A stretch of DNA of 61,070 nt from Ktedonobacteraceae bacterium (GTDB lineage: Bacteria; Chloroflexota; Ktedonobacteria; Ktedonobacterales; Ktedonobacteraceae): assembly GCA_019240835.1 (NCBI GenBank), contig JAFAXQ010000246.1:1-61070 (forward strand), given 5' to 3'. Every line of letters begins with the position of its first letter. Position 1 is the first letter of the stretch. Below are positions 41,912-59,484 of the stretch, piece by piece. Below the pieces are notes generated by a model, which saw only the letters and a program-made list of their open reading frames with translations, searched no databases and was not told the origin of the DNA. A program made the translations under genes and the position numbers.

Positions 41912-42715
41912 ATGGCAACACAGCACCCTACCTATGTGATTGGTGACATTCATGGTCAGTTTAAGCGGCTAGTAGGGTTGCTGCAAAGTGTCGGACTGAT
42001 AGGGGATGCTCTGCAATGGACCGGGGGGGCATCGACTCTGTGGTTCATGGGGGATCTTGTTGATCGAGGACCAGATGGTATTCCCGTTATCGACCTGGTA
42101 ATGCGATTGCAGGCTGAGGCAGCGGCTGTCAATGGTTGTGTTGCATCCTTGCTTGGTAACCATGAAATGTTGCTGCTGGCTGCGTATCGCTTCGGCAGGC
42201 GCTCAACCGGACTAGGTAGCAGTTTTCTCTCTAAATGGAAACGCAATGGTGGCAATCGTAAGGATCTGGCTAGCCTCAAGCTTGAGCATCTCGGTTGGTT
42301 AGCAAACCTGCCAGCAATGGCCCATGTTGATGATCATCTCTTCATTCACGCCGATGCGCCGCTGTACCTCAAATATGGCCGTTCTGTGCAGGAGGTGAAT
42401 GCTGCTATCAAAGATTTGCTCCGCAGGAGCGATAGTCTCGCCTGGGAGGAATTGCTAGAAGATTTTGTTAGACGAGGAATTTTCTACAGTGATAGGCATG
42501 GAGAGGTGTTAGCACAACGCTTCCTCGACCTCTACGGAGGTCAGTGCTTAGTCCACGGCCACACTCCTATTAGTTATATGCTCGGCTGCCAGCCAAAAAA
42601 GGTAACGAGGCCCTTACTATACGCAGGAGGACGCTGCGTGAACGTCGATAGCGGTCTGTACCTTGGTGGGCATGGCTTCGTCTCCCGTCTCCCCTTCTCC
42701 TCCGAAGAGCATTAG
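41912..42715 (+). CDS. PPP-family metallophosphoesterase (ApaH/PrpE-like phosphatase)
   Basis: GDIHG, GDLVDRG and GNHE motifs. Confidence 0.8.
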   Translation: MATQHPTYVIGDIHGQFKRLVGLLQSVGLIGDALQWTGGASTLWFMGDLVDRGPDGIPVIDLVMRLQAEAAAVNGCVASLLGNHEMLLLAAYRFGRRSTGLGSSFLSKWKRNGGNRKDLASLKLEHLGWLANLPAMAHVDDHLFIHADAPLYLKYGRSVQEVNAAIKDLLRRSDSLAWEELLEDFVRRGIFYSDRHGEVLAQRFLDLYGGQCLVHGHTPISYMLGCQPKKVTRPLLYAGGRCVNVDSGLYLGGHGFVSRLPFSSEEH

Positions 42716-43147
42716 ACACACTTCACTGCGGCTTCGCAACTCCCCGTCACTTTTGATACGCTGGCAAACCTCTCGCTCGAATGCTTGCTGGCCTTGCCTG
42801 AGGCATTGAGAAAAGGGGATTGGTCAGTAGTATCTTAAATAGAGCTCTACCAGACCAAAAATCCGTGGGTGAAAAGTTCGTGTGCTTGTCGTCTGTATAG
42901 CGATTGATGTTGAGCCTAAAGTGATCCAGCCGAACCTCTGCGTTGATGGCAAACAGGTTCAGAAACGATGAACAACTGGAGTAGAACCTGAGTAATACAA
43001 CTCAGTGGGGAATGAGCCTTTTCACCATCGATACAGCTAAGGTGAGAAAGCTCAGGCGACACTGCTAGGTAGTTCACATCTATTGTCTATGCTTGATATG
43101 CCGCATTGGAAGTTGCTTGAGACCCTGATAAGGAGAAGTTTGTTACG

Positions 43148-44734
43148 ATGACAGTCATACTTGATGGAGTCAATCTGAAACTGCTAGACATTCTGAGAAT
43201 CGCCCAAGACCGTGTTCCTTGTGAGATTCCCAGCAGTGTTATGATGAAGGTTACACATTCACGCCGCTTGTTCGAAGATATCGCCTCACAAAATATCCCG
43301 ATTTATGGTGTCACCACGGGTTATGGAGAAATGGTGTATATGCTCGTGGAAGCAGACAAAGAAAGCGAACTGCAATCCAACTTGGTACGCAGCCATTGCG
43401 CCGGTGTTGGACCACATTTCAGTGTAGAAGAAGCAAGAGCCATGCTAGCCGCACGTGTCAACGCGTTAGCTCGTGGATATTCCGCTGTCAGACCGGAGTT
43501 GATCAAACGGATGCTGCTGTATCTTAATGCAGACATTATACCGATTATCCCTGAAATCGGATCTTTAGGCGCAAGTGGAGACTTGGCTCCACTTTCCCAT
43601 ATAGCCATTACGCTGATGGGGGAGGGGTACGTCTTCCACCACGGACGGAAAACACCGACCAAGGAAGTGTTACAAGAACGTGGGATCACTCCACTGCAAC
43701 TCAAGTTTAAAGAGGGGCTAGCTCTCATCAACGGTACTTCCGCCATGACGGGGTTGGGCGCATTGGTTGTCTATAAAGGGCTAGAGCAGGTCAGACAAGC
43801 TGAAATCGTGTCTGCTTTAGTTCTACAGACACAAAGAGCATCGAGTAGCCCATTTCTTGCGGAAGGACATGAGCTTGCACGTCCGCACGAAGGGCAAATG
43901 AATTGTGCATACAATTTACGTCTATTAACTCAAGACAGTCAACTGATGAAGCCACACGAAGACCTACGCGCTGAGGCGTTGCATCAGAAATCTGAAACCA
44001 CTCAGGTGCATCGAACCAATGTCTACCTTCAGAAAGCATACACTCTGCGCTGTATTCCCCAGATACTTGGGGCTGTGCGCGATACATTGTCCCACGCAGA
44101 AAATACTCTAGAGATAGAATTGAATTCCTCCAATGACAATCCATTATTCTTTGAAGGGCAGGAGATCTTCCATGGAGGGAATTTCCATGGACAACCTGTT
44201 GCTTTTGTTCTCGATTTTGCTACGGTTGCCTTGACTCAACTTGGTGTCGTTTCTGAACGACGAACCAATCGTCTATTAAATCGTCATCTGAGTAATGGAC
44301 TGCCTGAATTTTTGGTGAAAAGCACCCCTGGCTTAAACAGTGGTTTTGCTGGCACACAATATACTGCGACAGCTTTGGTCGCTGAGAACCGTACGATTGG
44401 ACCTGCAAGTATTCAAAGTATTCCATCTAATGGAGATAACCAGGATGTGGTGAGTATGGGACTGATCGCCGCACGCAATGCTAGACGCGTGCTGACCAAC
44501 AACAACTATATTCTGGCAGTGGAATATCTGTCCGCTGCACAGGCAGTAGATATTGCTCAGTGCTACGATCGCCTGAGTAAGGCTGGAAAAATTACCTACA
44601 AAACAGTCCGCTCTCTTGCTGCAACATTGGACCAAGACCGAGATATGAGCGAGGACATTGAAGCTGTCGCCAGAGCTCTGTCGAGAGGCGAATTTTTAAA
44701 GGTTGTTGAGGAGGCAGAGATCCGGCTGATGTAA
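43148..44734 (+). CDS. MIO-dependent aromatic/histidine ammonia-lyase or aminomutase
   Basis: [14 protein letters not shown] (Ala-Ser-Gly MIO triad). [11 protein letters not shown] carries S-H at the specificity-switch position. Confidence 0.85.
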
Positions 44735-44822
44735 AATTAGAAACTGCTCTAGCATCGTTTATCGGAGTGCGAACTTACCTACAGACACAGCAAGACTTGA
44801 CTCTAAGGAGGCAAATACACAC

Positions 44823-46394
44823 ATGGCTACGACCCAGGATGGCTCTCCAGCAAGAGAGCAGACTGCAATCCGTCCTTTCACAGGAGCAGAGTATTTGGAG
44901 AGCTTACGCGATGGCCGTGAGGTCTGGATCTATGGAGAGCGGGTGAAAGATATCACCAGCCACCCGGCTTTTCGCAACAGCGCACGCATGCTTGCTCGGC
45001 TTTACGATGCTCTGCACGATCCTGCCAAGCGCGACGTACTCACGACCGCGACTGATACTGGCAGTGGTGGCTACACCCACAAGTTCTTTCGAACTTCCAG
45101 AAGCGCAGAGGAGCTCGTCGGTGCTCGTGATGCCATTGCTGAGTGGACACGGATGACCTATGGCTGGATGGGGCGTACTCCCGATTACAAGGCTAGCTTT
45201 CTTGCGACCCTCGATGCCAATGCCGAGTTTTATACTCCCTACCAGGCGAACGCCCACCGCTGCTACAAAGAAGCTCAGGAGAAAGTGCTCTACTTCAACC
45301 ATACTATTGTCAATCCCCCGGTCGACCGTAGCCTCCCACCAGAGCAGGTGGGCGATGTGTACCTCCATGCCGAGAAAGAAACAGACGCGGGCATTGTGGT
45401 AAGTGGGGCCAAGGTCGTGGCGACTGGCTCAGCTCTGACCCACTACAATTTCGTTGCCCATCATGGGCTACCCATCAAAAAGAAGGAGTTTGCCATCATC
45501 TGTACCGTTCCCATGGACGCTCGTGGGGTGAAGCTGATCTCGCGTGCGTCCTATGAGATGACCGCAGCAGTCATGGGTAGCCCCTTCGATTACCCGCTCT
45601 CCAGTCGTCTAGACGAGAATGACGCCATATTCGTTTTTGACAAGGTGCTCATTCCATGGGAAAACGTCTTCGTGTACGGGGACTTGGACAAGGTCAATAC
45701 CTTCTTTCCAATGTCCGGCTTCATTCCCCGCTTCACCTTGCAAGGCTGTGTGCGTCTCGCGGTAAAGTTGGACTTTATCGCTGGGCTTTTCCTGAAAGCT
45801 GTAGAGGCGACTGGAGCCAAGGACTTCCGTGGCGTGCAGGTGCGCATCGGTGAAGTGTTGGCATGGCGAAACCTATTCTGGGCACTTACCGATGCCATGG
45901 CTCGCACACCTACTCCCTGGAATAATGGAGCAGTGCTTCCTAATCTCGACTATGGCATGGTCTATCGCGTGTTCGCCACGGTCGCCTACCCGCGTATCAA
46001 GGAGATCATCGAAAACGATGTTGCCAGTGGGTTGATCTACTTAAACTCCAACGCCGTGGATTTCAAGTCGCCGGAGATTCGCCCCTACTTGGAGAGGTAC
46101 GTGCGGGGATCCAATGGGTACACAGCGGTGGATCGGGTCAAGCTCATGAAGCTACTCTGGGAGGCGATTGGGACTGAATTTGGGAGCAGGCATGAACTGT
46201 ATGAGCGCAACTACGCGGGCAACCATGAGGACATCCGGCTCGAAGTCCTCCAAGCAGCCATGGCACTCGGTCAGGTCAATCAGTACAAGGGTTTCGCCGA
46301 GCAGTGCTTGGCCGAGTACGACCTAGATGGCTGGACGGTGCCGGATCTCATCAACCCGGATGATGTTAATGTACATATGAGGAAGTTCAAGTAG
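44823..46394 (+). CDS. HpaB-family two-component flavin-dependent aromatic hydroxylase (oxygenase component)
   Basis: N-terminus [34 protein letters not shown] and the length typical of 4-hydroxyphenylacetate 3-monooxygenase. AAGGAGG SD. Confidence 0.8.
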
Positions 46395-46469
46395 GCGCTA
46401 CGCGCACGTCGGTAGACCAGTAGCAACGACGGGAGGGGAGGAGCGCGCACGGCCTCTAAGGAGCAACGT

Positions 46470-46958
46470 GTGGAGCCACAAGTTTTTCGTCAGGTCATTG
46501 GCCACTTCGCCAGTGGCGTCACGGTGATCACAGCACGTGAGCACGGCACCAACTACGGCCTGACAGCCAGCGCTGTGAGCTCACTCACGCTTGAACCGCC
46601 GATGCTGCTGGTCTGTATCAACAAGAATACTGGCACACAAGCCGCCATCAGCCGCACCCGCGTCTTTGCCGTCAACATTTTGAATGAAGGTCAGGCCGAC
46701 CTTGCCTACAAATTTGCGAAACCGCAGTCTGACAAGTTTCAAGGCGTCGAATTCTGCTACGGTCAATTCGGTGAACCGCTGCTAGCTGGCGCATTAGCTC
46801 ACATTGAATGCCGCGTTGTCACCGACGTTGAGGCTGGAACACACCGAGTCTTTCTGGCAGAGGTTGACCAAGCCAAATCCTATGTTGGCTCACCGCTGAT
46901 CTACTTCCGTGGCAAGTTTGGGTACTTTGATCAGGCTGAGAGGCTGTATGAAAGTTAA
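46470..46958 (+). CDS. NAD(P)H-flavin reductase (HpaC-like small component)
   Basis: FRQVIGHFASGVTVITA flavin-reductase-domain pattern. GTG start with an AAGGAG SD 7 nt upstream. Confidence 0.8.
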   Translation: MEPQVFRQVIGHFASGVTVITAREHGTNYGLTASAVSSLTLEPPMLLVCINKNTGTQAAISRTRVFAVNILNEGQADLAYKFAKPQSDKFQGVEFCYGQFGEPLLAGALAHIECRVVTDVEAGTHRVFLAEVDQAKSYVGSPLIYFRGKFGYFDQAERLYES

Positions 46959-46972
46959 CAGGAAAATACCCT

Positions 46973-47374
46973 ATGTTCGAGCAGACTATACAAAGGTACT
47001 TTCAAGCTCTGGAAACTTCTGATTATGATGGATTAATGGAGCTGTTTGCTCCCGAGGCAGTGGTTTTTTCTCCCTTGTATGGAGAAAGAAAAGCAGTGGA
47101 GTTCTATCAGGAACTCTTCAAAGACACCGCCTCCTCGAAGATCACCTTGTTGCGTGTCTTTGAGAGTGGAACGACTGGAGCCGTCCTTTTTCGCTATGAT
47201 TGGGTTCTCAAAAATGGAACTTCTACGTTTTTTGAATGCGTTGATATTCTCGAGTTCTCGCAGGGAAAAATACAGAGCCTAAAAATCATTTATGATACCT
47301 CTCCCGTTCATATTCTCCTCAGCACCTCGAAGCCCAGTACAGTGGAGGGGACTGCTGGCGAGGTGGCTGCCTAA
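46973..47374 (+). CDS. NTF2/SnoaL-like small protein
   Basis: YFQALETSDYDGLMELFAPEAVVFSP is the typical SnoaL-like opening; 133 aa. Confidence 0.6.
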   Translation: MFEQTIQRYFQALETSDYDGLMELFAPEAVVFSPLYGERKAVEFYQELFKDTASSKITLLRVFESGTTGAVLFRYDWVLKNGTSTFFECVDILEFSQGKIQSLKIIYDTSPVHILLSTSKPSTVEGTAGEVAA

Positions 47375-47469
47375 TGCTACATCCGCTGTCGGGAGCTTGA
47401 GCATGTTGTTCCTTGAGGAAGCTCGTTTTTAGCTGACCGCGCCGATCCCGTCCATCGGCTGCTACTGGC

Positions 47470-49062
47470 TCAGGCTCCGTTCGCGGGCGGAATGCTTTGT
47501 GCGAAATGGAAAAAATTGTTGGGGTCATAGACAGCCTTGACATGCTGCAGCCGTGGCAGATTAGTGCCATAATACGCGTGCTGCCAGTCGGCCAGATCTG
47601 GATCAATGTAGTTCTGGTATGCCTGCCCGCTGGCGTACGGGCGCATTGACTGCCACGTCTCGGTCAGCCAGGAGCGATTCGCTGCGGCGATGGAAGCAGG
47701 GTCGCTCGCGTTCCAGCCTGCCGTGTACTGGGTGGAGAACAGCGCGTTGCGGTGTACAAAAGCTGTCGCGTCGGCGGCCACGCGGTTGATCGCGCCGCCA
47801 TTCGCATCGAGCAAGATGCCGCCCGCACCTAGCGTGGAGGCTTGGCGGCGAGTGATCGCGCTCACCAAGGCGTCGATACCCTGGCGCGGCAGAGCGTGGG
47901 TGAAGTAGTCGGACTTGGCAGCGGAGGTATCTCGCTGCAACTGGCCTTGTGGATTCTGGCTGGGCAAGTGGCATTGAGCCACGGTCTTACCAGAACAGCC
48001 TGCCTCGGTCAGCATAGTATCAAGCAGGTTGTTAGCCCCTACGAAGCGGCTTGTGGGTGCTGTGCTGATGCGGCTGGTCAGCCGTTGCAGTAGCGGGTTC
48101 AGGGCTGCAACAGTGCCTACATAGACGCCGTTCAGGCGCACGATTGGAGCGGAGCGCTTGTCGTTGGTGGCCAAGAGTAGGCAGTTGGACCACAGCTCAT
48201 CAGGCATCACAGGTGCCCAGCCCTGCCAGGCATCGACCACAGCAGCAGCGCTACTCCACGGCCAGTCCAGCGTGAACAGTGACAACGTGGAGACCGGGTG
48301 TGCTCGGAATGTGAACGAAGTGACCACGCCGAAGTTGCCACCGCCACCGCCACGCAGTGCCCAGAATAGGTCAGAATGGTGGCTCGCGTCGCAAGTGAGC
48401 ACGCGGCCATCGGCTAGGACAACCTGTGCCGCGAGCAGATTGTCACAGGTCAGGCCGAACTTGCGACCCAGCACACCAACTCCACCCCCAAGGGTTAGGC
48501 CAGCGATGCCCACTGTCGGGCAGGAGCCAGCGGGCAGTGTCAGCCCCTGCTGCGCAAGCGTCGCGTAAACGTCGATCAGTCGTGCCCCCGCTCCCACCGT
48601 AGCGGTGACAGTGCTCCTATTCACTGTCACCGCACTCATACGGGTCACATCTAGCACCAAGCCAGTAGTCGTCGAATAGCCAGCGTAGGAGTGGCCACCG
48701 CCGCGAGGTGCCAGGGGCAAAGTGAAGCGTTGCGCGAAGGCGAGGCACTTCTGGACATCCGCAGGCGAGGCGCAGTAGGCAATTGCGGCTGGCAGAATAC
48801 CGTCAAAGCGCGTGCTAAAGAGTTGGTGTGCAGTCGGGTACTGTGGACTATTCGGTCGGACTAGCGTCCCCCGCAGGCTTCTGGCGAGCGCCGCCCAGTC
48901 GGCGTCGCTGGGTGATGGTCCCTTGGAAGGGCTTGACGTCGCACTGGCGGAACTTGACTGCCCATTCTGGCAGGCGGACAGCAGCCCTGGCAACGCTGTT
49001 AGGGCGCAGAGTGCTAGAAACTCACGGCGTTTTATCTGTTGTGGTGGAATAGTGTCTGTCAT
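47470..49062 (-). CDS. Secreted (Tat signal plus lipobox) FAD-linked oxidase with BBE domain
   Basis: KRREFLAL twin-arginine motif and LLSAC lipobox. GGGHSYAG and GSCPTVGIAGLTLGGG are bicovalent-FAD-type His/Cys contexts. C-terminal YQNYID...YDPNNFF BBE motif. Confidence 0.8.
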   Translation of the reverse strand: MTDTIPPQQIKRREFLALCALTALPGLLSACQNGQSSSASATSSPSKGPSPSDADWAALARSLRGTLVRPNSPQYPTAHQLFSTRFDGILPAAIAYCASPADVQKCLAFAQRFTLPLAPRGGGHSYAGYSTTTGLVLDVTRMSAVTVNRSTVTATVGAGARLIDVYATLAQQGLTLPAGSCPTVGIAGLTLGGGVGVLGRKFGLTCDNLLAAQVVLADGRVLTCDASHHSDLFWALRGGGGGNFGVVTSFTFRAHPVSTLSLFTLDWPWSSAAAVVDAWQGWAPVMPDELWSNCLLLATNDKRSAPIVRLNGVYVGTVAALNPLLQRLTSRISTAPTSRFVGANNLLDTMLTEAGCSGKTVAQCHLPSQNPQGQLQRDTSAAKSDYFTHALPRQGIDALVSAITRRQASTLGAGGILLDANGGAINRVAADATAFVHRNALFSTQYTAGWNASDPASIAAANRSWLTETWQSMRPYASGQAYQNYIDPDLADWQHAYYGTNLPRLQHVKAVYDPNNFFHFAQSIPPANGA

Positions 49063-49211
49063 AGGTTGTACGAATTGTATTCTACAACTTTTCTTGTGTT
49101 TGGAGACATCATAGCATGTCGTACTAGTGATAGCAACTCACCATTTACTTTGTCAGAAATAGCTTTTGCTTCAAGTCACCTCACCTAGCATTTGTTGTAT
49201 GATCTCAATCG

Positions 49212-49613
49212 TCATCGCCCAGGTGCTGATCCTGGCTCTCTCAGTGTTCTATGATCGATCCCTGCTAGCTCTACCAAGCTGATGTTATCTGCGGCTTGCC
49301 TAGGGGCGGCTGCGTATGTCTGACTGAGCGTAAGAGGCACATGGGGATCCTCGGTTCCATGAAGAAGCACTTGCCAGACTCCTAGTGGCAGCAGTGCAGC
49401 CGGAGAGGCAAGAGCAGAGCGTGCGGGAACCTCATCGAAACTGCCACCCAGGAATGCGGAGACAACGCCATTGCCCACGTTCGGCCGCCATGCTAGCTCC
49501 AGATCAGGTAGCCCTGCAAGGCTGCATTGCTCTGGCGCTGTTCCATAGGCATGTCGTACGGGAGGAGTTTTTGCTGGGTGAGTCGGCACCCTTTCATTTT
49601 GTCCCGAACCCAT
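49212..49613 (-). pseudogene. Probable remnant (C-terminal part only) of an alpha/beta hydrolase/peptidase
   Basis: Only the LLHGTEDPHVP...GIDH C-terminal catalytic Asp/His region is present. There is no nucleophile region or credible N-terminus. Confidence 0.4.
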
Positions 49614-49663
49614 AGTGTTTCCTCATCTCTATGTGGGGAAACGATTCCTGTACGAAAGCGCCG

Positions 49664-51877
49664 TCACATGTCAACAAACACATCTGCCAGCCTCATGATC
49701 CGCTGCTCGTCAGGCCAAGTTTCACGAGCTTTTCTCCAGACAGTGACCGCTTCCTGCCGCCGCTTCTCGCTTCCCAACGCCTTGGCTCCTGCGACTCCTG
49801 CTAGCAGATAGTGTTCAAATTCCTCCATATTGCCTGCTCCAACCGCCGCTGCCGCCTGGTGGTTGATGATCTCAATACGAAGACGCTCAGGGACGACGAT
49901 GGGTCTAGGAAGCTGGTCAACTTGTGCGAGCTTGCTTGCAGCTTCTTGGTAGCGATCATAGGCACGCGACGGGTTATCGTACCTCTCTTCATGATTCGCT
50001 AGAGCAAGGTTGCTCAGTCCTTCAAACAAAATCACCTGAAAGAGACCATAATCCGTCGAGAGGAATACAGGAATTTCTCTGACTACCTCTGGGAAAATGG
50101 CCCGTGCCTCGCTGATCGAACAAAGTGCTTGCTGGACTTTCCCATTTTGTGCATAGCCGTGAGCCAACTCAGCATATGCCTTGCTCCGCACGAGGAGCGG
50201 TAGAGTATCGTCTCTCTCCTTCACATCACTGTAGAGGAGTGCTTGTTGGCAAGTCTGTAACATTTCCGCTCGTTGTCCATTAGTGTAGAACGCATCTCCG
50301 AGATGAGTAAGAGCTGTGACGAGCAGGGTTTGATCTCCTGCTACATGAGCATACTCCACTGCTTGTTTACAGCAAGCCACTCGTTCAAAGAAACGAAGTC
50401 GATGCAGAGCCACTAAACCCAATAGCAAGTACCCTTGAGCGGCAAGGTAGGCGCTTTTTTGTTTATAGGTAGGAAGTTGTTGGATCAACGCGGTCAGCAC
50501 GGGTAAATACTTAGGCAGTACATACTCGACAGTAGATAATCCATCTCCCCGGAGTAGGTGCCAGCACGCCGTGATGCTGGCGCTACATTGGGCCAGAAAC
50601 TCTTCCAGGAGCAGGGCGGTGAGAGGTCCCGCTTGCACTTTGGTCAGCAGGGCAGCAGAGACCGTCGCCAGCGTCGTAAGAGCCAGGCGTCGCCCTAGCA
50701 GCACGTCACTGCTCGTCTTGCCAGCCTGATCGCTCATGGTGTTCCATCTCTCTATCTGCTCGTGCAGCAGGGCTTGCACGTGGGAACAAGCGAGCTGCTG
50801 TTCTTGCCAGCCAGCCAGCACTCCCTTCAGCACGTCGACCTGCTCACTGAACCAGCTTGGCCAATCGCACACCTCCACACGTCGTGGCGAGGGGTCGAGC
50901 ACCAGATGGGCAGGCACCAGCACTCCGCTTTCTGCTGGCAACAACGGTTCTTGTCCTATTATACTAGCATGCTCAAGCGCACTATGCTCTCCCCGAACAC
51001 GTCGCCGCGTGATCTGTTTGGCGCGCAAATACTCCGCGATCTCCTGCGTGCGTGCATCAGGATCGCGCCCCTCTTCTTGCAATGCTTCAAGGGCCTGTTG
51101 ATAGCACGCTTCCGCCTCCTGGTAGCGCTCCTGCTCTCCCAGCAGTTCCAGCAACGGGCGCAACGCATCCTCATCAGTGGGATGGGCCTGCCAGTAGGTG
51201 TGCAATCGCAGTTCTGCCAGGGCATGATGCCCGTGCTGGCGGTAGAGAGTAGCCAGCCGATGCACACACTGCCGATGCTGCCCCTCTAGACGCGCACGCC
51301 GTGGCATGGCCCACGGGCTATAGCGTTCCTCGACCAGATACGTGCCCCGTGCGGCTAGCTGAGAGGCGACTTCCCACAGCGACAGCGCCTCCTCGCCAAA
51401 GCGCTCCAGGCGTGCAGCCTGCTCGACATTCCACGTAAATGCATCGGCATCCACCCAGATGTGCGGATAGGCCGCCAATTGGTAGCCGTTGCCATTGGCG
51501 GGGGTGCCTTGCCTGAGCAGCAGGACGTGTGTGCTGCCGGGTGGGCGCAACAGTTTGCGTAGGGCGTAGACCACATTATCCAGGCGTTTGGCAGCCGCTG
51601 TGCTACTGACTTCAGGCCAGAAGTGCTCCATGATCTCATCGCGCAGAGCGAAGCGATGGGGTTGGCTCAGCAGCAGTTTGAGCAGCCAGAGGGCAGCGGT
51701 GGCATCCTTGATAGCCAGGTGCTCTTCGCAGAGAGCGTTAGCGCAGCCGCGTTGCTGGTCAATCCACTCGATGTGCAGTGGCCCAAAGGTGTAGATGCGG
51801 ATGTGCGTGGGGCTGGCACGGTCAGGCTGGGCATGGGGAACTGGGGGGTGTGGCGTGGCGGTGTAGTCTGACTGCAT
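49664..51877 (-). CDS. SARP-family regulator (OmpR-type wHTH plus BTAD plus TPR-like C-terminal region)
   Basis: IRIYTFGPLHIEW..., BTAD helices (ALSLWEVA...RLATLYRQHGHHALAE...YQQALEAL), and a long helical-repeat tail. Start moved to MQSDY (51877) with a GGAAGGAA SD. Confidence 0.75.
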   Translation of the reverse strand: MQSDYTATPHPPVPHAQPDRASPTHIRIYTFGPLHIEWIDQQRGCANALCEEHLAIKDATAALWLLKLLLSQPHRFALRDEIMEHFWPEVSSTAAAKRLDNVVYALRKLLRPPGSTHVLLLRQGTPANGNGYQLAAYPHIWVDADAFTWNVEQAARLERFGEEALSLWEVASQLAARGTYLVEERYSPWAMPRRARLEGQHRQCVHRLATLYRQHGHHALAELRLHTYWQAHPTDEDALRPLLELLGEQERYQEAEACYQQALEALQEEGRDPDARTQEIAEYLRAKQITRRRVRGEHSALEHASIIGQEPLLPAESGVLVPAHLVLDPSPRRVEVCDWPSWFSEQVDVLKGVLAGWQEQQLACSHVQALLHEQIERWNTMSDQAGKTSSDVLLGRRLALTTLATVSAALLTKVQAGPLTALLLEEFLAQCSASITACWHLLRGDGLSTVEYVLPKYLPVLTALIQQLPTYKQKSAYLAAQGYLLLGLVALHRLRFFERVACCKQAVEYAHVAGDQTLLVTALTHLGDAFYTNGQRAEMLQTCQQALLYSDVKERDDTLPLLVRSKAYAELAHGYAQNGKVQQALCSISEARAIFPEVVREIPVFLSTDYGLFQVILFEGLSNLALANHEERYDNPSRAYDRYQEAASKLAQVDQLPRPIVVPERLRIEIINHQAAAAVGAGNMEEFEHYLLAGVAGAKALGSEKRRQEAVTVWRKARETWPDEQRIMRLADVFVDM

Positions 51878-51970
51878 AGCTAGTTCCTTCCGAGCAAGCA
51901 AGGTTACTGACTCTTGCTGACGTGCAGTATAGCACATCTTTGCTGCTTATGCTAGTGGCTCATGAATTTC

Positions 51971-52122
51971 GGGTGCGCGTCACTTTTTTGCATGGCTGGG
52001 GCAGAGCCGCTGCCACTACTAGACAGGTGACGAGGCGGGCGGAGCGTGTATCGTAGTGGCGATCCCTTGCGGTCGCCATGCTCACCCATTCACGCTCACT
52101 GCAAAAATGTGACGCGCATCCC
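51971..52122. repeat. Long-range inverted repeat (about 22 nt arms) enclosing about 107 nt in the SARP/SDR divergent intergenic region
   Basis: GGGTGCGCGTCACTTTTTTGCA (51971-51992) versus TGCAAAAATGTGACGCGCATCCC (52100-52122), complementary with one indel and one mismatch. An inner hairpin TGGCGATC...GGTCGCCA is also present. Confidence 0.8.
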
Positions 52123-52145
52123 TTCTCTCCTTCTCTCCTATTGTA

Positions 52146-53318: not shown

Positions 53319-54659
53319 TCATAGCGAGGGAAGAGGCTTGCGTCTTCGCGCTTCAAACCAGTTGAAGAGGTAGGCAAGCGTTACGAGTACGAAAAAAGCA
53401 TTGCGCACACTTACTGCTTGAATAAAGCCCGGCACGAGTGGAATAAGCAGCAAATCAACCGGACGGGTGTAGAGATACAAAATAAAGGTGGTGAGGAGCG
53501 AGATGCTACCCCATGCGAATAGCCAGAAAGCGTCAAAAGCACCGACATAGGCGAGCAGTGGAATAATCCAGATCAGATATTGTAGGCTAAAGACTTTTCC
53601 TGTAGCTATGAAGACGAGCAAAAGCGCAATGCTGACTTGTGCGATATCAAGGCGGCCTCGCCATTGCATCCACAGCGTATAAGCATACCCTATGATGAAG
53701 AGAAGCCCGCTTAGAAGTGAAACAAAACCAGCTAATTTACTACTAATGTTGAGCGAACCATACGTATAGGTAATCTGCAGCGGAACACCGAAGTGCATTG
53801 CCAGCCAGAGAAAAGTACTGCCAGTGGCTTCAACTTGTATGGGTCGCTGCACAAAATAGTTCAATTGATCGAGAACTGCTCCTTGAAAATTGAGCAGGGC
53901 GAATGCTCCTGTAACTGCTAATAGCATACCTAAAAAGAGCAACAGATTTTTCCAGTACCAGTCAAAGGCACCACGGAAAGTGAGCCAGAGATCGTGCGGA
54001 ATTGATGTTAGGGAAATGCTTGTAGGAGGTGTATAGAAACGTCCTCGCTCCTGCTGCTCTGCGATAAAAAGTGAGGGAAGAAGTAGGATAGGGTACAGCT
54101 TAAAGAGCACTGCGAAGGCGAGGGCTATGTAGGCCCAAGCCCAGCGCCTTTGTTCTGCTGCGATGATAAAGAGCAGTGTCAGCAAGGCTGGAATTAAATC
54201 GAAACGTATCTGTACTGTTGCTAGCGCCCCGATGAAGATGTACAGCACGAATATCAGCGCGGCCCCACGTGGCCCGTAACGTAACAATAGCCAGTAGATC
54301 AGGGCTGATGTAAGCGCCATGAGCAAGACAAATGCCATCTGATAATTGAGTAGGGGTGCCAGCAGTGCTAGCGAGAACAGTAATAGCGTAAGTGGTGGGT
54401 ATTCTAGTGGCAGCATATGGAATGCTGGCTGTGGTTGCGCAATGTGCAAGAATGCACATTGCGCTGGAGGAAGTAGGTGTGTTGCATCGCTGCCGAGCCA
54501 GAAGGTCAATGCGTAACATTGGTAGCGTGCTGGATCGGTTCTTGGTAAAAAGATTTGCCACGCGGAACTGCAGAAGGCAGCGATTGTCAGGAGAGTAATG
54601 GGAATATATGTTACGGTACCACTTCGTGCTAGCAAGGCATTCCACTTATCTCTCAACAA
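53319..54659 (-). CDS. Polytopic membrane protein, GT-C/DUF2029-like (possible glycosyltransferase)
   Basis: At least 10 hydrophobic segments and the length typical of DUF2029/GT87-like proteins, judged by pattern only. The start overlaps the NACHT gene stop by 14 nt. Confidence 0.45.
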   Translation of the reverse strand: MLRDKWNALLARSGTVTYIPITLLTIAAFCSSAWQIFLPRTDPARYQCYALTFWLGSDATHLLPPAQCAFLHIAQPQPAFHMLPLEYPPLTLLLFSLALLAPLLNYQMAFVLLMALTSALIYWLLLRYGPRGAALIFVLYIFIGALATVQIRFDLIPALLTLLFIIAAEQRRWAWAYIALAFAVLFKLYPILLLPSLFIAEQQERGRFYTPPTSISLTSIPHDLWLTFRGAFDWYWKNLLLFLGMLLAVTGAFALLNFQGAVLDQLNYFVQRPIQVEATGSTFLWLAMHFGVPLQITYTYGSLNISSKLAGFVSLLSGLLFIIGYAYTLWMQWRGRLDIAQVSIALLLVFIATGKVFSLQYLIWIIPLLAYVGAFDAFWLFAWGSISLLTTFILYLYTRPVDLLLIPLVPGFIQAVSVRNAFFVLVTLAYLFNWFEARRRKPLPSL

Positions 54660-57336
54660 CTGAGTCCTCCATCACACTTTGGACTGTGCTGAGGGAGGCG
54701 AGGTACTCAAGCAGCAAGTGGTGGATAAAGACGTAGCCTCCTCCTACCTTACGCAGCAGCAGTCGCTCACTGGCTTCATCCAGAAAGTGCGCATAGTTCC
54801 AGGGAGTATATCCCTTACCTGTGAGAATTACGCGCAAGACCATGTGTTGTAGGCATGCGTACCCCCCGTTGAGTAGGAAGAGGATCAAGGTGGCAATCAG
54901 ACCCAGGGGGACCGACCACAACAGTCCAGATGCAAGATCGGTAGGGATCAGCCAAAAAGAGAGCGCGAGGCTCAAACCAGTGAAGGCTAGGCCAATAGGA
55001 AATCCGATGAGAACGCCATTGCGTGCAGAAAGTCGGATGCCTTCATTCGGCCTGATATGGGTACGGTCTTCCAACAAGCGCCGCGACAATCCACCGAGCC
55101 ACCATCCTATGGCTGCACCAGCCAGTCCGCCGATGAAACCGCTAGTGAGCAGATGCATCTGCCACAAAGCAAAATTGAGGTAGACTTCATAGCCCAGCCC
55201 CACCGTTCCTCCCACCAGCATCCCAAGGAATCCTCCAAGCAACGAGATCGTCACCCGCCGTCGGATAGGTACTGCCGACCAGACGAGCGCCTCGACGGGT
55301 TGGATCTGTGTTTCTCGACCACCAACTAGGGTACCAGCCAGCCCTCCGATGAGTACTGCGGTCAATCCATAACTCAGTTCTTCTACGACCTGATTGTAGA
55401 CGCTAGAAGAGAGTGGACAAGGCACCCAGAGCAGATTGATCAGTACAAAGATTAACCCAAAGCTCAAGCCAAGCAGTGAGGTGATCACTCGTCGTTGGAT
55501 AGGTATTGCCGACCAGAAGCCAGTCTCGATAGACTTCATCCGTGTGTCTCTGTGGCCAAATAAACCACCAATCGATCCTCCCAGTAGCCCAAACCCCAGT
55601 CCGTAGGTGAGTCCGACAATTGAGAAGGGCAGGAAAAAGGCCAGCAGTTGTGCTCTTGTGCCAAATACTGGCAAGCCGTATGCGCATTGCGATGCTGTCA
55701 CGGCCGTGTGGGTCAAGAGCGCAAAAAGTTGGGCGTGGACAACCTCATACAGGGGGACATCGGCAAGCATAGCTGTTAGGCCTGCCAGCACCCCCACGAG
55801 CAGGCCTATGAACAGTCGACAGTACCATCGAAAAGCTCGAGGCTCCAAGAGCCAATTGGGTTGCATGCTCTCGATGTAGAACTCGGTCTGCTGCTGCCGC
55901 ACTAACTGCCGTGCCAGCCAGGCTAGGTAGCGCAGGGTTTGCGCTGCTGTATAGCAACTCTGGTTGCTCCGACGGGTGAGCAGCATATGCCTAACGTAGA
56001 CCGCAAAGACCTGGTGGCGTCGGGCCTGCAAGGAAAGCGGCTGTGGGAACGCATCGACCGTTTTGCCCTGGTAGGTCAGTGCCAGCATGCTCAACATCAG
56101 CGGGTTGCTCGCCAAATCGCGCAAGGCTGGATCCGCATGCAATGCCTGCTCTAATGCTGCTAGTTGCTCCCCGGCACTAGCCAGATACGCCTCAACCTGC
56201 TCGGAGGTGAGCGGTTGCACCACGACAGCGCGAGAGAGCAAAAGCCGTGCTGGCTGTGCGAAATACTCGTCCTGCCGACAGCACACCACTAGGGGTAGGA
56301 ACCCATGCTCCTGTCGATAGGCGTTGATGGTCTCGATACAGGCACTGCGACAGGTAGGTCTCACCTCGTCCAGACCGTCAAGCAGGGGTAAGATCTGCTC
56401 GGTCTGTATCCAGAACTGCGCCAGCTTGCGAGGAACCTGGTACTTGCTGTGCAGTTCCTCCTCTAACCAATCGCTCAGTGAGCATTGCTTCTGAGCCCAG
56501 GAGGACAGATTGAAGACGACAGGGATGGGATGGGTTTCATCCCGGTCCGCTCGGTCGAGTAGATTGCGAGCTAGCTCCAATAAGAGCGTCGTCTTGCCCA
56601 AACCAGGCTCCCCAAGAATGAGCAATTCGCCATTGATAGCATCGTAGACTTGACTGAGATCGGTACCCGGGGGCAAGGGCTGAGCGATCTGCTTGGGCTG
56701 ATACACGTGCCAGGGATTGGCTACTGCGTCGGCTCGCTCCTGCAATCCCAGGGCTATAAGAGGTGCCCCGTGTAAGGACTGCTCTAACACCCCGCTGATC
56801 CAGAAGGTACGCACTTTCCTGACCATCCGCTGACGATTCTGTTGGCTCATCGGAGCAGGTCCTAGCTGGGCTACCGATGTGGGTAGGTCCGCAACCAAGG
56901 AAGGCGACAGCTTGGCCAGGGAGTTCAAGGAGCCGATGGCTTGGCCGTTCGCGGAGCAGTCTATGCTGCTGAACAGGGCAGGACGCTGATCCGCTTCTCC
57001 CACTTGAGCGCTCCTAGTCTGCCCAGCAGTCTCTTGCTGTTGTCCAGGGATGGGGGGCGGCATGCTCTCCTGCTCAATAGAGCAGGGGAGCAACCCAAGC
57101 TCCTGGGCATCAAGGTCAAAAACGTCACACAGTGCGTGGCGATAGCGGGGACTAGGAAAGGAAATGCCACGTTCCCAGCGAGCGACAGTGCGGGGATCAG
57201 GCTCACCGGGACCGAAATCCGGCAGGCGGCTTATGCGTGTTGCAACCTCTTCAAGTGTCCAGAAACGCAGCTCCCGTTCCTGTTTCAACTTCTGATTTGG
57301 CTTCCCTTTTTTCTTTGGATAAGTCTGCTCTTTCAT
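54646..57336 (-). CDS. STAND NTPase: XRE-like HTH plus NACHT plus repeated multi-TM C-terminal region
   Basis: HTH (WTLEEVATRISRL...RTVARWERG), Walker A GEPGLGKTTLL, Walker B LLDGLDEV. Repeated TM modules (IETGFWSAIPIQRRVITSLLG and VEALVWSAVPIRRRVTISLLG) and a C-terminal FLDEASERLLLRKVGGGYVFIHHLLLEYLA. The ORF track extends to 57453, but that extension is made of an intergenic-looking repeat. Confidence 0.8.
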   Translation of the reverse strand: MKEQTYPKKKGKPNQKLKQERELRFWTLEEVATRISRLPDFGPGEPDPRTVARWERGISFPSPRYRHALCDVFDLDAQELGLLPCSIEQESMPPPIPGQQQETAGQTRSAQVGEADQRPALFSSIDCSANGQAIGSLNSLAKLSPSLVADLPTSVAQLGPAPMSQQNRQRMVRKVRTFWISGVLEQSLHGAPLIALGLQERADAVANPWHVYQPKQIAQPLPPGTDLSQVYDAINGELLILGEPGLGKTTLLLELARNLLDRADRDETHPIPVVFNLSSWAQKQCSLSDWLEEELHSKYQVPRKLAQFWIQTEQILPLLDGLDEVRPTCRSACIETINAYRQEHGFLPLVVCCRQDEYFAQPARLLLSRAVVVQPLTSEQVEAYLASAGEQLAALEQALHADPALRDLASNPLMLSMLALTYQGKTVDAFPQPLSLQARRHQVFAVYVRHMLLTRRSNQSCYTAAQTLRYLAWLARQLVRQQQTEFYIESMQPNWLLEPRAFRWYCRLFIGLLVGVLAGLTAMLADVPLYEVVHAQLFALLTHTAVTASQCAYGLPVFGTRAQLLAFFLPFSIVGLTYGLGFGLLGGSIGGLFGHRDTRMKSIETGFWSAIPIQRRVITSLLGLSFGLIFVLINLLWVPCPLSSSVYNQVVEELSYGLTAVLIGGLAGTLVGGRETQIQPVEALVWSAVPIRRRVTISLLGGFLGMLVGGTVGLGYEVYLNFALWQMHLLTSGFIGGLAGAAIGWWLGGLSRRLLEDRTHIRPNEGIRLSARNGVLIGFPIGLAFTGLSLALSFWLIPTDLASGLLWSVPLGLIATLILFLLNGGYACLQHMVLRVILTGKGYTPWNYAHFLDEASERLLLRKVGGGYVFIHHLLLEYLASLSTVQSVMEDSVVER

Positions 57337-57392
57337 CTCTTCAATTGCCTTCTTTTTAGCTTTAAGCTGCCACTTGCACTCTCTTCCCTGAA

Positions 57393-57506
57393 GGGGAATG
57401 AGAGTTGAGTAGGGCGGTTCGCACATATATAAACAATCTTTGCCATCCCTCATTATACGTATTCGGGGAATGAGAGTTAGGTAGGGCGTTCACACATGGA
57501 TAAACG
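57393..57506. repeat. Two copies of a 42-43-bp direct repeat, 72 bp apart
   Basis: GGGGAATGAGAGTTGAGTAGGGCGGTTCGCACATATATAAACA (57393-57435) versus GGGGAATGAGAGTTAGGTAGGGCGTTCACACATGGATAAACG (57465-57506). Confidence 0.85.
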
Positions 57507-57554
57507 GGCCTTTAGAGGAAATTTGCATACAAGTGACTACTCGTTGTTCCCTAG

Positions 57555-57592
57555 TTGCACCTTGTTGTCTCCTGATTGCACGTTGTTGCTCC
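57555..57592. repeat. Tandem 17-18-bp direct repeat TTGCAC(C/G)TTGTTG(T)CTCC upstream of lanA
   Basis: TTGCACCTTGTTGTCTCC (57555-57572) and TTGCACGTTGTTGCTCC (57576-57592). Related CACCTTGTTAC at 57744-57756 and CGTTGTTCC at about 57541. Confidence 0.7.
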
Positions 57593-57805
57593 ACAAATGT
57601 CATTCAACTGCCAGGGATGGTCCATGTATGCTTCCAGTGTCGAGACGATCCATGGTAGCCTTTGGAAAAACCAAGGCGTTTCAGGCCAAATTGGTCTAAC
57701 CACCAATGGACAGTTTACCTACCTAAATTTTGTACAACTTAGTGACACCTTGTTACTAATTTTGCAGGACTGTTTAGGTAGAAGTGATTGATTTAAGGAG
57801 AAAAG

Positions 57806-58003
57806 ATGAACACCGATTCTGGAGCTAACATTAACGACAGCAACAATCCTTTCAAGCTTGATGTACGCATTTTCCCCTCACACGACATTAGTCATGCTCA
57901 TGCAGCGGTGAAGCCTGCATCACCCGCGACGTGCCAGACGTGTCGAGAAAGCCAGTGTAGCTGGAGCGTCATCACTACTTGTTGGTCTTGTTCTGCCTGT
58001 TAG
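57806..58003 (+). CDS. lanA: Class I lanthipeptide precursor peptide
   Basis: AAGGAG SD. The leader has an F-K-L-D (FNLD-type) box. The C-terminal 24 aa TCQTCRESQCSWSVITTCWSCSAC carry 6 Cys and 9 Ser/Thr. lanC and lanB follow directly. Confidence 0.85.
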   Translation: MNTDSGANINDSNNPFKLDVRIFPSHDISHAHAAVKPASPATCQTCRESQCSWSVITTCWSCSAC

Positions 58004-58036
58004 CGTAGATAGACTTAGTAGTATCCCTGAGGTGAA

Positions 58037-58070
58037 TATGAAGCATGCTTAGAACTGAGTATGCTTCATA
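58037..58070 (+). terminator. Stem-loop between lanA and lanC (possible partial terminator or processing site)
   Basis: TATGAAGCAT-14 nt-ATGCTTCATA; no U-tract. Confidence 0.4.
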
Positions 58071-58098
58071 CCTCCTACCGTAGAGGACGGTTGTTTCT

Positions 58099-59484
58099 AT
58101 GTCTGAGAGAGTTCACCCAAAATATGCAGATTCTTTCATTGTTTGTCCTGCAGATACTAGAGAACCTATTTGGCATGCTATGGTCCCCTCCGTACTGCGG
58201 CAACGAGCCTTGGCGAACATACAAGTTATCGCTGAACGTTTGCAAAATCCTGAGTATATCCTGACCGTAGTAGAAAAGGCAAAAAAGCAGTCTCGGCTTT
58301 TTCATTGGGGGGGTGCTCTCTTCTCTAATAGCTTTGCAAGCGTTGCGCAATTCTATCTCTACCTGACACGTTGCCTTTCAGAACAGGCTTGGGAAGAACA
58401 TGCGCACAAATACCTACGTCTAGCGGCTCAGAGTACCCATCATTATCCGTTAGAAAAGCTTGGGCTATTTGATGGTAGTAGTGGCTTTGCATTGATTCTC
58501 TCTGCTTTCAGTGAACACGAGCCGCGCTATCATGAGACATACAATGAAGTCCAGGAGGAAATAGCAAGGCAAGTGCTGGCACGAAGGTGGAAGCGTCGTT
58601 ATTCAAGCGTAGAGGCGAGCGACTATGATGTCATGTCAGGTGTTTCCGGTATTGTTGGCTACCTTACCTCACTTCGATCTCCCAGTATCCATGTTGAAGA
58701 AGCGATCTTGAAACTCCTGGGCTATCTGATCTGGCTCAGCGACGAAGATCAGCCTGGCCGCAAAAATTGGTTTATTGCACCTGAGCATTTGCCTCTGGAG
58801 AGGTATCGTGAAGAGTACCCTGATGGATATTTGAACGTTGGCCTTTCTCATGGCATTGCTGGTCCCTTGGCTGCTCTTGCGCTGGCTTGGAAGGCCGGTT
58901 ATCGTATTCCTGGTCAGCGCGAAGCTATCGAACGGTTAAGTCAGTGGATCGTCGAACGTCAAGTGCAAGATGAATGGGGTATTAACTGGCCCACTGCGAT
59001 ACCTCTCCAGATGTCGCATAGTCCTGAACAATGGCGGATGCTTCCCTCGGCACGGGCAGCGTGGTGTTACGGCGCACCTGGTATTGCCTCTACCCTGTGG
59101 TTAGCAGGAGCTGCCTTACAGGATACGTCGTTGCATCAGATAGCGTTGCAGGCCCTTGAGACAGTTCTTCAACGTCCCATTGAGCAACGTAATATTAATT
59201 CACCTACAATCTGTCATGGGGTGGCAGGATTACTTGCTATCTGCCTGCGTTTTGCTCATGTATCACAAAGTCAGATCGTGCAAAAGCATATTTCGTTGCT
59301 CACTGAACAGATTTTGGGGGCTTGTCACTCCGATTTGCCACTTACTGTACAGGATCAGGAGAGCAATGGAATCTTTGTCGATGATCCTGGCTTTCTCACT
59401 GGTGCAATCGGTGTGGCATTAGTATTGCTGGCCGTGTGTACATCCGTTGAACCACAATGGAATCGTGCCCTTCTGATTGCGTAA
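58099..59484 (+). CDS. lanC: LanC-type lanthipeptide cyclase
   Basis: GLSHGIAGPL, WCYGAPGIA and ICHGVAGLL, the three LanC signature blocks that include the Zn ligands. Confidence 0.9.
   Translation: MSERVHPKYADSFIVCPADTREPIWHAMVPSVLRQRALANIQVIAERLQNPEYILTVVEKAKKQSRLFHWGGALFSNSFASVAQFYLYLTRCLSEQAWEEHAHKYLRLAAQSTHHYPLEKLGLFDGSSGFALILSAFSEHEPRYHETYNEVQEEIARQVLARRWKRRYSSVEASDYDVMSGVSGIVGYLTSLRSPSIHVEEAILKLLGYLIWLSDEDQPGRKNWFIAPEHLPLERYREEYPDGYLNVGLSHGIAGPLAALALAWKAGYRIPGQREAIERLSQWIVERQVQDEWGINWPTAIPLQMSHSPEQWRMLPSARAAWCYGAPGIASTLWLAGAALQDTSLHQIALQALETVLQRPIEQRNINSPTICHGVAGLLAICLRFAHVSQSQIVQKHISLLTEQILGACHSDLPLTVQDQESNGIFVDDPGFLTGAIGVALVLLAVCTSVEPQWNRALLIA

Follow-up and report, generated by a model that had tools for sequence, protein, structure and literature searches.

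A strain-specific gene cassette in a Ktedonobacteraceae bacterium pairing a predicted tyrosine 2,3-aminomutase with an HpaB-family hydroxylase of separate ancestry

We analysed a 61,070-bp stretch of DNA from a Ktedonobacteraceae bacterium of the phylum Chloroflexota (GenBank assembly GCA_019240835.1, contig JAFAXQ010000246.1), hereafter called the window. It carries a block of four co-directional genes encoding, in this order, an enzyme of the 4-methylideneimidazole-5-one (MIO) type, an HpaB-family oxygenase, a short-chain flavin reductase and a small protein of the NTF2/ketosteroid isomerase (KSI) type. This block is discrete, replaceable and strain-specific. Family assignment makes the MIO enzyme a tyrosine 2,3-aminomutase (TAM) of the SgcC4/SgTAM group, and the phylogeny of the oxygenase places it in a catabolic lineage of the Ktedonobacteria. 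We tentatively favour a reading in which the four genes form a carrier-independent operon that would convert L-tyrosine into beta-tyrosine and then into free 3-hydroxy-beta-tyrosine, with a side branch leading through coumarate to caffeate.

The limits of the block follow from comparison with closely related contigs. In one of them (L173, 87-95% nucleotide identity) the gene order is epimerase, berberine bridge enzyme (BBE)-like oxidase, sulfotransferase, metallophosphoesterase and CBS. It is homologous to the window up to position 42709, a few codons before the end of the phosphoesterase gene, and again from 47474, at the stop codon of the BBE gene; segment 42710-47473 of the window stands in place of an 853-bp sulfotransferase segment of L173. 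A named Ktedonobacteraceae metagenome-assembled genome (MAG; L175) shows the same order, again without the cassette. The gene occupying this place in the two relatives encodes a 233-aa Sulfotransfer_4 protein with no NCBIfam match (L173 2839-3540; L175 2251-2952). The known carriers of the cassette belong to one lineage, represented by the window and the same-strain contigs L001, L002 and L174, and no repeats or target-site duplications were found at the islet junctions.

The BBE-like oxidase, which had been counted among the pathway enzymes in a preliminary description of this region, is a pre-existing neighbour and lies outside the cassette. Its orthologue in the cassette-less L173 is 92% identical at the protein and 88.6% at the nucleotide level, and that of L175 falls into the same 90% cluster. 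Because the BBE, phosphoesterase, CBS and epimerase genes keep the same order in these relatives, all four are regarded as conserved flanks. The best PDB matches of the oxidase were PpBBE1 and EncM-type oxidases, and its N-terminus (KRREFL...LLSAC), inspected by eye, resembles a twin-arginine signal followed by a lipobox.

A second insert lies on the far side of the BBE gene. L173 joins the equivalent of window position 49149 straight to 52127, lacking the orf133/SARP segment (SARP, Streptomyces antibiotic regulatory protein), and its BBE gene abuts the epimerase gene. L175 likewise lacks the SARP-like gene and has the epimerase gene directly beside BBE, and the strain-level contig L174 shows the NTF2-BBE-SARP order of the window. 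The SARP-like gene thus co-varies with the cassette, being present in the window and L174 and absent from L173 and L175, and it is likely to encode the cassette regulator, for which it is our candidate. Its product has a BTAD domain (33.8 bits against a cutoff of 22.1), preceded by a putative winged helix whose Trans_reg_C match (25.1 bits) is just below the cutoff of 26.2, and a C-terminus of about 450 aa resembling tetratricopeptide repeats. Just inside the right end of this insert there is an intergenic element of about 150 bp (51971-52121), which matches two intergenic sites of another related contig (L171, 132-281 and 1862-1906) at 84-91%; no second copy was found in the window.

The MIO enzyme scored 859 bits, in a full-length match (5-511), against TIGR03832, the NCBIfam equivalog of tyrosine 2,3-aminomutases such as SgcC4 and CmdF (cutoff 501). 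It did not reach the cutoff of the hutH equivalog TIGR01225 (530.4 vs 539.15). The broader histidine ammonia-lyase (HAL) subfamily model NF006871 was passed (538 vs 524), but with a score 320 bits under that of the TAM model. The scores against two families of tyrosine ammonia-lyases (TALs), FlxA (NF053541; 439 vs cutoff 700) and BagA/FevW (NF041222; 302 vs 1000), also fell short. In the PDB the best match was SgTAM (2rjr/2ohy, 730 bits), the next family scoring 348, RsTAL 279 and the HAL of Pseudomonas putida 277. Identity to SgcC4 of Streptomyces globisporus (L079) amounts to 65%.

Alignment with SgcC4 revealed an identical Ala-Ser-Gly MIO triad (A142-S143-G144), and residues Y53, E61, H83, N195, Y293, Y298, R301 and Y405 are all identical to their SgcC4 counterparts (Tyr63, Glu71, His93, Asn205, Tyr303/308, Arg311 and Tyr415 in SgTAM numbering). 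We take the catalytic roles of Tyr63, Glu71, Asn205, Tyr303/308 and Arg311 from the structural literature on SgTAM, in which His93 and Tyr415 recognise the para-hydroxyl group of tyrosine. Eight homologues of approximately 70% identity, residing in non-ribosomal peptide synthetase (NRPS) contexts, have Ile in place of His93 and Phe in place of Tyr415, and this natural switch supports a tyrosine-reading role of H83 and Y405. The 11-residue motif with its S-H dyad, noted in the preliminary description, was confirmed. It had been taken there as a HAL signature that left the substrate genuinely ambiguous; however, SgTAM itself reads NLVRSHSAGVG at this place, so the dyad is the normal state of this aminomutase family and loses its value as a HAL signature, and the two equivalog scores (859 for TAM, 530 for hutH) leave little of the ambiguity.

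The Ile/Phe variants (P0002, P0004-P0009 and P0011; loci L084 473-2059 and L085 4000-5586) are the closest aminomutase homologues (70% identity). They adjoin genes for NRPS adenylation (A), peptidyl carrier protein (PCP) and sometimes condensation (C) domains, A-PCP(-C), as well as MbtH, acyl-CoA dehydrogenase and thioesterase genes, and they are probably phenylalanine aminomutases within the "TAM" equivalog family. Conservation of the cassette could not be traced through the nearest aminomutase homologues, whose contexts are unrelated (ATP-grasp/AsnB or NRPS). On a contig of 27% GC (L083, 1092-11691), the gene of a Tyr-type aminomutase precedes those of a methyltransferase, an asparagine-synthase-like enzyme, an ATP-grasp ligase and a major facilitator superfamily exporter; this set looks like an NRPS-independent beta-tyrosine cluster of another design.

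The hydroxylase has a different history. Its best PDB match was SgcC (4oo2, 769 bits; E. coli HpaB, EcHpaB, 686 bits), and it is 64-65% identical to SgcC-type enzymes and 60% to EcHpaB. Since the HpaB family is so conserved, this top match is not discriminating. The possibility of SgcC orthology, prompted by this match and implied in the preliminary description, was ruled out by a neighbour-joining tree of 129 sequences labelled by gene context (100 bootstrap replicates). All 49 aminomutase-linked HpaBs, SgcC included, form one clade, and the window HpaB lies outside it (100/100). It is nested instead among catechol-dioxygenase-linked enzymes, in the order (L094,(L093,(window,(L092,L091)))), again with 100/100 support. 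Its maximum identity to a member of the TAM-linked clade is 72%, compared with 90% to its catabolic sisters.

These sisters came from a scan of JGI metagenomes and are 89-90% (L091), 87-89% (L092), 85% (L093) and 80% (L094 and L095) identical to the window HpaB; named relatives at 77-80% belong to Thermogemmatispora and Ktedonobacteria. Downstream of HpaB, both L092 and L094 have a reductase::GntR-FCD fusion and then a catechol 2,3-dioxygenase gene (TIGR03211, above cutoff), the dioxygenases being equivalogs of this enzyme and not of HpaD. Further genes encode hydratases/decarboxylases of the FAA-hydrolase family, a DmpF/DmpG pair, an aldehyde dehydrogenase and an alpha/beta hydrolase; by gene content, the two sets are classical meta-cleavage operons. 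An aminomutase gene adjoins none of the HpaB genes of L091-L095. Taken over these families as a whole, neighbouring TAM and HpaB genes do not represent a chance pattern, but the pairing seen in the window is unique for this HpaB clade among the loci examined. As judged from the tree and these contexts, the hydroxylase has an ancestry separate from that of the TAM-linked HpaBs and descends from a catabolic lineage of the Ktedonobacteria.

The flavin reductase shares 76% identity with the corresponding domain of the L094 fusion protein, and it stayed under the cutoff of all NCBIfam equivalogs (HpaC, 93 vs 206). It ends right after the reductase domain, whereas its sisters are fused to the GntR-FCD regulator. 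The fusion proteins (L094 9410-10537 and L092 2112-3129) have 375 aa, and the L092 copy appears to be frameshifted. A reductase at least 90% identical to that of the window is also encoded on contig P0152 (17.7 kb).

The window HpaB did not reach the cutoff of the HpaB-2 equivalog TIGR02310 (744.5 vs 885.2), but it retains R118/Y122/H160, equivalent to Arg113/Tyr117/His155, the phenol-binding triad of EcHpaB (PMC6506529). Given this intact triad, the enzyme is predicted to be competent. Enzymes of the EcHpaB type accept tyrosine, coumarate and other 4-substituted phenols, and p-coumarate is hydroxylated efficiently (PMC6506529). The EcHpaB-type beta32-beta33 loop with the carboxylate-anchoring Ser210 is absent from the window enzyme, which has a shorter loop (of an 11-residue type) common to all non-enteric members and matching that of the catabolic sisters (AH[YH] followed by 13 residues). 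This loop was rejected as a means of distinguishing SgcC-type from catabolic enzymes, because all non-enteric members are short-looped and, beyond clade signatures, it is uninformative.

Three private changes of the window HpaB, W147C, A161T and D447E, affect positions that are invariant in the 129 other sequences compared, and an additional one, Y214H, lies in the active-site loop. A161T falls between the equivalents of the catalytic His155 and of Ile157, a known HpaB pocket residue (PMC10537072). When the 17 closest relatives were compared, the window HpaB had ten private changes, against 0-6 in equally close sequences; the identical protein is encoded in two assemblies. The closeness of such substitutions to the catalytic His suggests that the pocket has changed; re-tuning after relocation and relaxed constraint would both fit.

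The organisation of the four genes resembles that of an operon. They are separated by spacers of only 88, 75 and 14 bp, each is preceded by a Shine-Dalgarno-like sequence, and no terminator-like site on the plus strand was found in the gaps between them (terminator-like sites in the region numbered eight, which is not above the 5.8 expected from shuffled sequence). From these features and the common strand we infer that the four genes are co-transcribed. The tight linkage described previously was thus confirmed, as were the typing and positions of all five open reading frames (ORFs), including that of the BBE-like oxidase. The GC content of the window is approximately 52%, and that of the cassette is a mosaic (TAM 47.6%, HpaB 54.9%, reductase 53.8%, NTF2 45.5%), which agrees with separate origins of its parts. 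Several housekeeping proteins of the window share 90%-identity clusters with proteins of "Ktedonobacteraceae bacterium"/Chloroflexota MAGs, so the host is no actinomycete.

Genes for a carrier-bound pathway were sought throughout the window. No NRPS or polyketide synthase domain was present in any ORF of at least 150 aa, an A-PCP-C query gave zero matches across the 61 kb, no PP-binding domain was found among the called genes with precomputed Pfam annotation in contig L001, and the 432-bp gap upstream of the cassette contains no small ORF of carrier-protein size. CoA-ligase, hydratase-lyase and ring-cleavage genes are likewise missing from the window, and no riboswitches or other RNA elements were detected between 39 and 53.5 kb. 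Urocanase or imidazolonepropionase domains were absent from all ORFs of at least 150 aa (about 45 larger ORFs in the 61 kb), in agreement with the earlier statement that no hutU or hutI gene is nearby.

This differs from the usual setting of tyrosine aminomutases, which, to our knowledge, nearly always provide beta-tyrosine for NRPS, enediyne or ATP-grasp assembly lines of actinomycetes and myxobacteria. The 80 genomic TAM loci that we compared are nearly all from actinomycetes, the exceptions being a Legionella MAG and a Melainabacteria MAG. An HpaB of the SgcC clade is encoded within 10 kb of the TAM gene in 49 of them, and NRPS-type adenylation, carrier or condensation genes occur within the same distance in 45 of these 49, compared with none in the window. 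The NRPS-free TAM+HpaB loci of actinomycetes (L024, L029, L072 and L073) were rejected as models of a minimal pathway; L024 is the edge of a larger deoxysugar-containing cluster.

Taking all this into account, we infer the hydroxylase substrate and the product of the cassette from sequence as follows. In the first step, strongly indicated by family membership, the MIO enzyme would turn L-tyrosine into beta-tyrosine, with p-coumarate as a lyase by-product; enzymes of the TAM family, such as SgTAM, release p-coumarate as a side product. In the second, the two-component oxygenase would receive FADH2 from the neighbouring NAD(P)H:flavin reductase and hydroxylate the phenol ring ortho to the hydroxyl group, yielding free 3-hydroxy-beta-tyrosine (3,4-dihydroxy-beta-phenylalanine) and caffeate from any coumarate. 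The hydroxylase/reductase pair would have been recruited from the phenol/catechol meta-cleavage operons of the lineage itself and not co-inherited with the aminomutase, and the co-acquired SARP-like activator would regulate the cassette.

Any role of the NTF2/KSI-like protein in this proposal is speculative. Only nine homologues were detected in all. Identity to the non-self ones is 48-56%, and all of these that could be assigned to a genomic context reside among housekeeping genes on DPANN (Aenigmarchaeota-type) contigs; for this reason cassette conservation could not be assessed through this protein. In three of the DPANN loci (L087 6117-8390, L088 1401-3674 and L089 6872-8378) the homologue is divergent from an adjoining class-I Tyr/Trp-type tRNA synthetase gene (PF00579). 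An AlphaFold2 model (pLDDT 84) matched KSI best among enzymes of known function, along with NTF2-like proteins of unknown function, AclR/SnoaL2 and TerC; as a route to the role of the protein, the fold search thus gave generic NTF2/KSI matches only. The fold is the same as that of Comamonas testosteroni KSI (TM-score ~0.7, rmsd 2.3-2.5 A) at 25% identity. The equivalents of the oxyanion-hole residues Tyr14 and Asp99 (Y9 and D91) are invariant in the family, in contrast to the base Asp38, which is replaced by an invariant Ser33. Because the oxyanion-hole residues are kept, we speculate that the presumably co-transcribed protein might bind or tautomerise a phenolate or enolate; it may also be a passenger.

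A more specific version of the proposal is possible, though somewhat doubtful. The cassette would then be a carrier-free route to a free catechol beta-amino acid ("beta-DOPA") or a derivative of it, the hydroxylase pocket having been re-tuned by W147C, A161T and D447E, and the NTF2-like protein catalysing an undescribed step. This step might be a phenolate- or quinone-methide-assisted epimerisation, deamination or hydration of the beta-aryl-beta-amino acid.

Several observations weigh against a carrier-independent operon. The sole biochemically studied TAM-linked HpaB, SgcC, reportedly requires a substrate tethered to a carrier protein (Lin et al. 2008; Chang et al. 2016; both cited in PMC6165268), and there is no direct precedent for an enzyme that hydroxylates free beta-tyrosine. 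The literature searched yielded neither a pathway that combines a tyrosine aminomutase with an HpaB acting on free substrate nor any work on aminomutases of Ktedonobacteria. The cassette is known from a single lineage and hence offers no cross-taxon conservation that would show selection for the combination, and a mosaic composition within a flexible islet is also an outcome of accidental accretion. The private HpaB substitutions could equally reflect relaxed selection, and the relatives of the NTF2-like protein occur in unrelated archaeal contexts.

It is unlikely that the genes are accidental neighbours in a hypervariable islet, with the aminomutase feeding a remote pathway or being the sole enzyme of relevance, and the HpaB and reductase genes being a displaced catabolic fragment that is decaying or whose products still accept catabolic phenols only. 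Such a history would agree with (i) the company of the sister HpaBs (80-90% identity), which sit with catechol 2,3-dioxygenase, DmpF/DmpG, hydratase, hydrolase and aldehyde dehydrogenase genes, (ii) the missing GntR-FCD part of the reductase, together with the GC mosaic, (iii) the three changes at universally invariant HpaB positions, and (iv) the lack of synteny with relatives from 39.4 kb onward. However, gain or loss involved all four genes together, and the junctions lie cleanly at the flanking stop codons; the genes share their strand, short spacers and Shine-Dalgarno sites, and the HpaB frame is intact and encodes the catalytic triad; with no ring-cleavage genes alongside, a catabolic role would be a dead end here.

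We consider it quite unlikely that the MIO enzyme acts mainly as a tyrosine ammonia-lyase and that the hydroxylase and reductase convert p-coumarate into caffeate. The leakage of p-coumarate by TAM enzymes, the efficiency with which EcHpaB hydroxylates this compound and the lack of any visible user of a beta-amino acid in the window would suit such a route. The MIO enzyme, on the other hand, scores far above the TAM cutoff and below those of both TAL families, is much closer to SgTAM than to RsTAL, and has retained the active-site residues of SgTAM, Glu71 among them.

A true module of the SgcC4/SgcC/SgcE6 type, acting on tethered beta-tyrosine with the carrier encoded elsewhere and serving an NRPS or enediyne product, seems improbable. 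The best PDB matches (SgTAM and SgcC) and the prevalence of NRPS-type genes at TAM+HpaB loci point in this direction, and only 61 kb of the genome are visible. Against it stand the position of the HpaB outside the TAM-linked clade, the absence of A, PCP or C domains from the window and of a small carrier ORF near the cassette, and the nature of the latter, a 4.8-kb indel between housekeeping-type genes. There is very little to recommend a catabolic or assimilatory role, in which a reversible aminomutase/lyase would take environmental beta-tyrosine or tyrosine to coumarate and the hydroxylase would ready it for ring cleavage elsewhere: the ancestry of the hydroxylase is catabolic and the MIO reaction is reversible, but the window has none of the CoA-ligase, hydratase-lyase and ring-cleavage genes, no such pathway was found in the literature searched, and SARP-type activators are typical of secondary metabolism. 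Finally, a plain HutH beside a 4-hydroxyphenylacetate hydroxylase, the scenario that the preliminary description had set against its own proposal, is almost certainly wrong, since the S-H dyad and the NF006871 score are outweighed by the missed hutH and HpaB-2 equivalogs, by the far higher TAM scores and by the absence of hutU/hutI from the window, although the catabolic descent that it implied for the hydroxylase/reductase pair holds.

The features of the cassette and of its surroundings are collected in Table 1.

Table 1. Position and annotation of the cassette genes, the adjoining genes and the two strain-specific segments of the window
Feature	Coordinates	Strand	Size and evidence
MIO enzyme gene (predicted TAM)	43148-44734	+	528 aa; Lyase_aromatic, E 1e-167 (Pfam)
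HpaB-family oxygenase gene	44823-46394	+	523 aa; HpaB_N + HpaB (Pfam)
Short-chain flavin reductase gene (HpaC/SgcE6 type)	46470-46958	+	162 aa; Flavin_Reduct, E 3e-41 (Pfam)
NTF2/ketosteroid-isomerase-like gene	46973-47374	+	133 aa; SnoaL_2, 53.9 bits (Pfam)
BBE-like FAD oxidase gene	47470-49062	-	530 aa; FAD_binding_4 + BBE (Pfam)
orf133, hypothetical, in second insert	49212-49613	-	133 aa; annotated as a gene on contig L001; no hit in Pfam
SARP-like regulator gene	49664-51937	-	757 aa; BTAD; winged helix near threshold
Cassette block TAM-HpaB-reductase-NTF2	42710-47473		4.76 kb, strain-specific; blastn of L173 against the window
Second strain-specific insert, orf133 + SARP-like gene	49150-52126		2.98 kb; blastn of L173 against the window

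Other parts of the window are also of interest. The related contigs L171 and L172 are syntenic with the window between 28.5 and 39.4 kb, at 89% nucleotide identity, but this synteny breaks off at 39447, which identifies the right-hand third of the window as a variable region; beyond the equivalent of this point the two contigs carry genes for an Eco57I-type N6-methyltransferase, an AIRS-family protein, a luciferase-like protein and RuvA/RuvC. On the minus strand, between 18300 and 23208, there are four co-directional genes. Two of them encode a pyridoxal phosphate-dependent decarboxylase (564 aa) and an H-NOX (HNOB)/V4R protein; the products of the other two are a tryptophanyl-tRNA synthetase, which passes the TIGR00233 cutoff, and a protein of 427 aa that matches tryptophan 2,3-dioxygenase in part. 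The four may constitute a cluster for a tryptophan-derived metabolite with an extra or resistant synthetase. The region 54646-59484 encodes a helix-turn-helix and NACHT protein of 935 aa, for which numerous transmembrane stretches are predicted. After it comes a LanC-like cyclase of 461 aa that stands alone, neither a LanB/LanM partner nor a precursor peptide being obvious.

If the carrier-independent operon is real, the pairing of aminomutase and hydroxylase arose twice, from different hydroxylase lineages. Free hydroxylated beta-tyrosine would then itself be a metabolite, which might serve as a catechol chelator, a pigment precursor or a signal, and three genes would provide a biocatalytic route to building blocks of the beta-DOPA type. 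Because near-identical strains differ in whether they carry the cassette, its contribution can be tested directly. The proposed chemistry is an expected extension of known logic and not a surprise, and the cassette is known from one lineage; should one of the alternative explanations be right, the islet would be a set of unrelated genes of little consequence.

Among known systems, the catabolic relatives are the closest to the hydroxylase. E. coli HpaBC and the L092 and L094 operons share with the window the Arg/Tyr/His triad and a separate flavin reductase, and the L092 and L094 enzymes also share the loop type. The cassette differs from them in lacking genes for catechol 2,3-dioxygenase, hydratase, aldolase and dehydrogenase and the GntR-FCD part of the reductase, in placing HpaB downstream of an aminomutase, and in W147C, A161T and D447E. 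Sam8/Sam5 of Saccharothrix espanaensis, which is reportedly a tyrosine ammonia-lyase and a 4-coumarate 3-hydroxylase giving a catechol phenylpropanoid, is said likewise to combine a tyrosine MIO enzyme with an HpaB-family hydroxylase; the MIO enzyme of the window, however, is classed as an aminomutase and not as a lyase.

The set most similar in composition is SgcC4/SgcC/SgcE6 of the C-1027 enediyne cluster of S. globisporus (with its MdpC4/MdpC-type equivalents), in which the same three enzyme families stand side by side and the predicted chemistry, formation of beta-tyrosine followed by ortho-hydroxylation of the ring, is the same. The earlier idea of an aromatic amino acid-derived catechol pathway of this kind is to this extent supported. 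In contrast to the C-1027 set, the window has no counterpart of SgcC1 (A), SgcC2 (PCP), SgcC3 (halogenase) or SgcC5 (C), its host belongs to the Chloroflexota and not to the Actinomycetota, and its cassette forms an islet of 4.8 kb flanked by genes of housekeeping type. In addition, the predicted substrate of the hydroxylase is free, not carrier-tethered as for SgcC, and the oxygenase falls into a separate clade. As far as family membership goes, only the aminomutase belongs to the SgcC4/SgcC/SgcE6 set, the hydroxylase and reductase being members of the Ktedonobacteria phenol/catechol lineage. Since the hydroxylase would have been recruited separately, the cassette may be viewed as a convergent re-assembly of the SgcC4/SgcC/SgcE6 logic.

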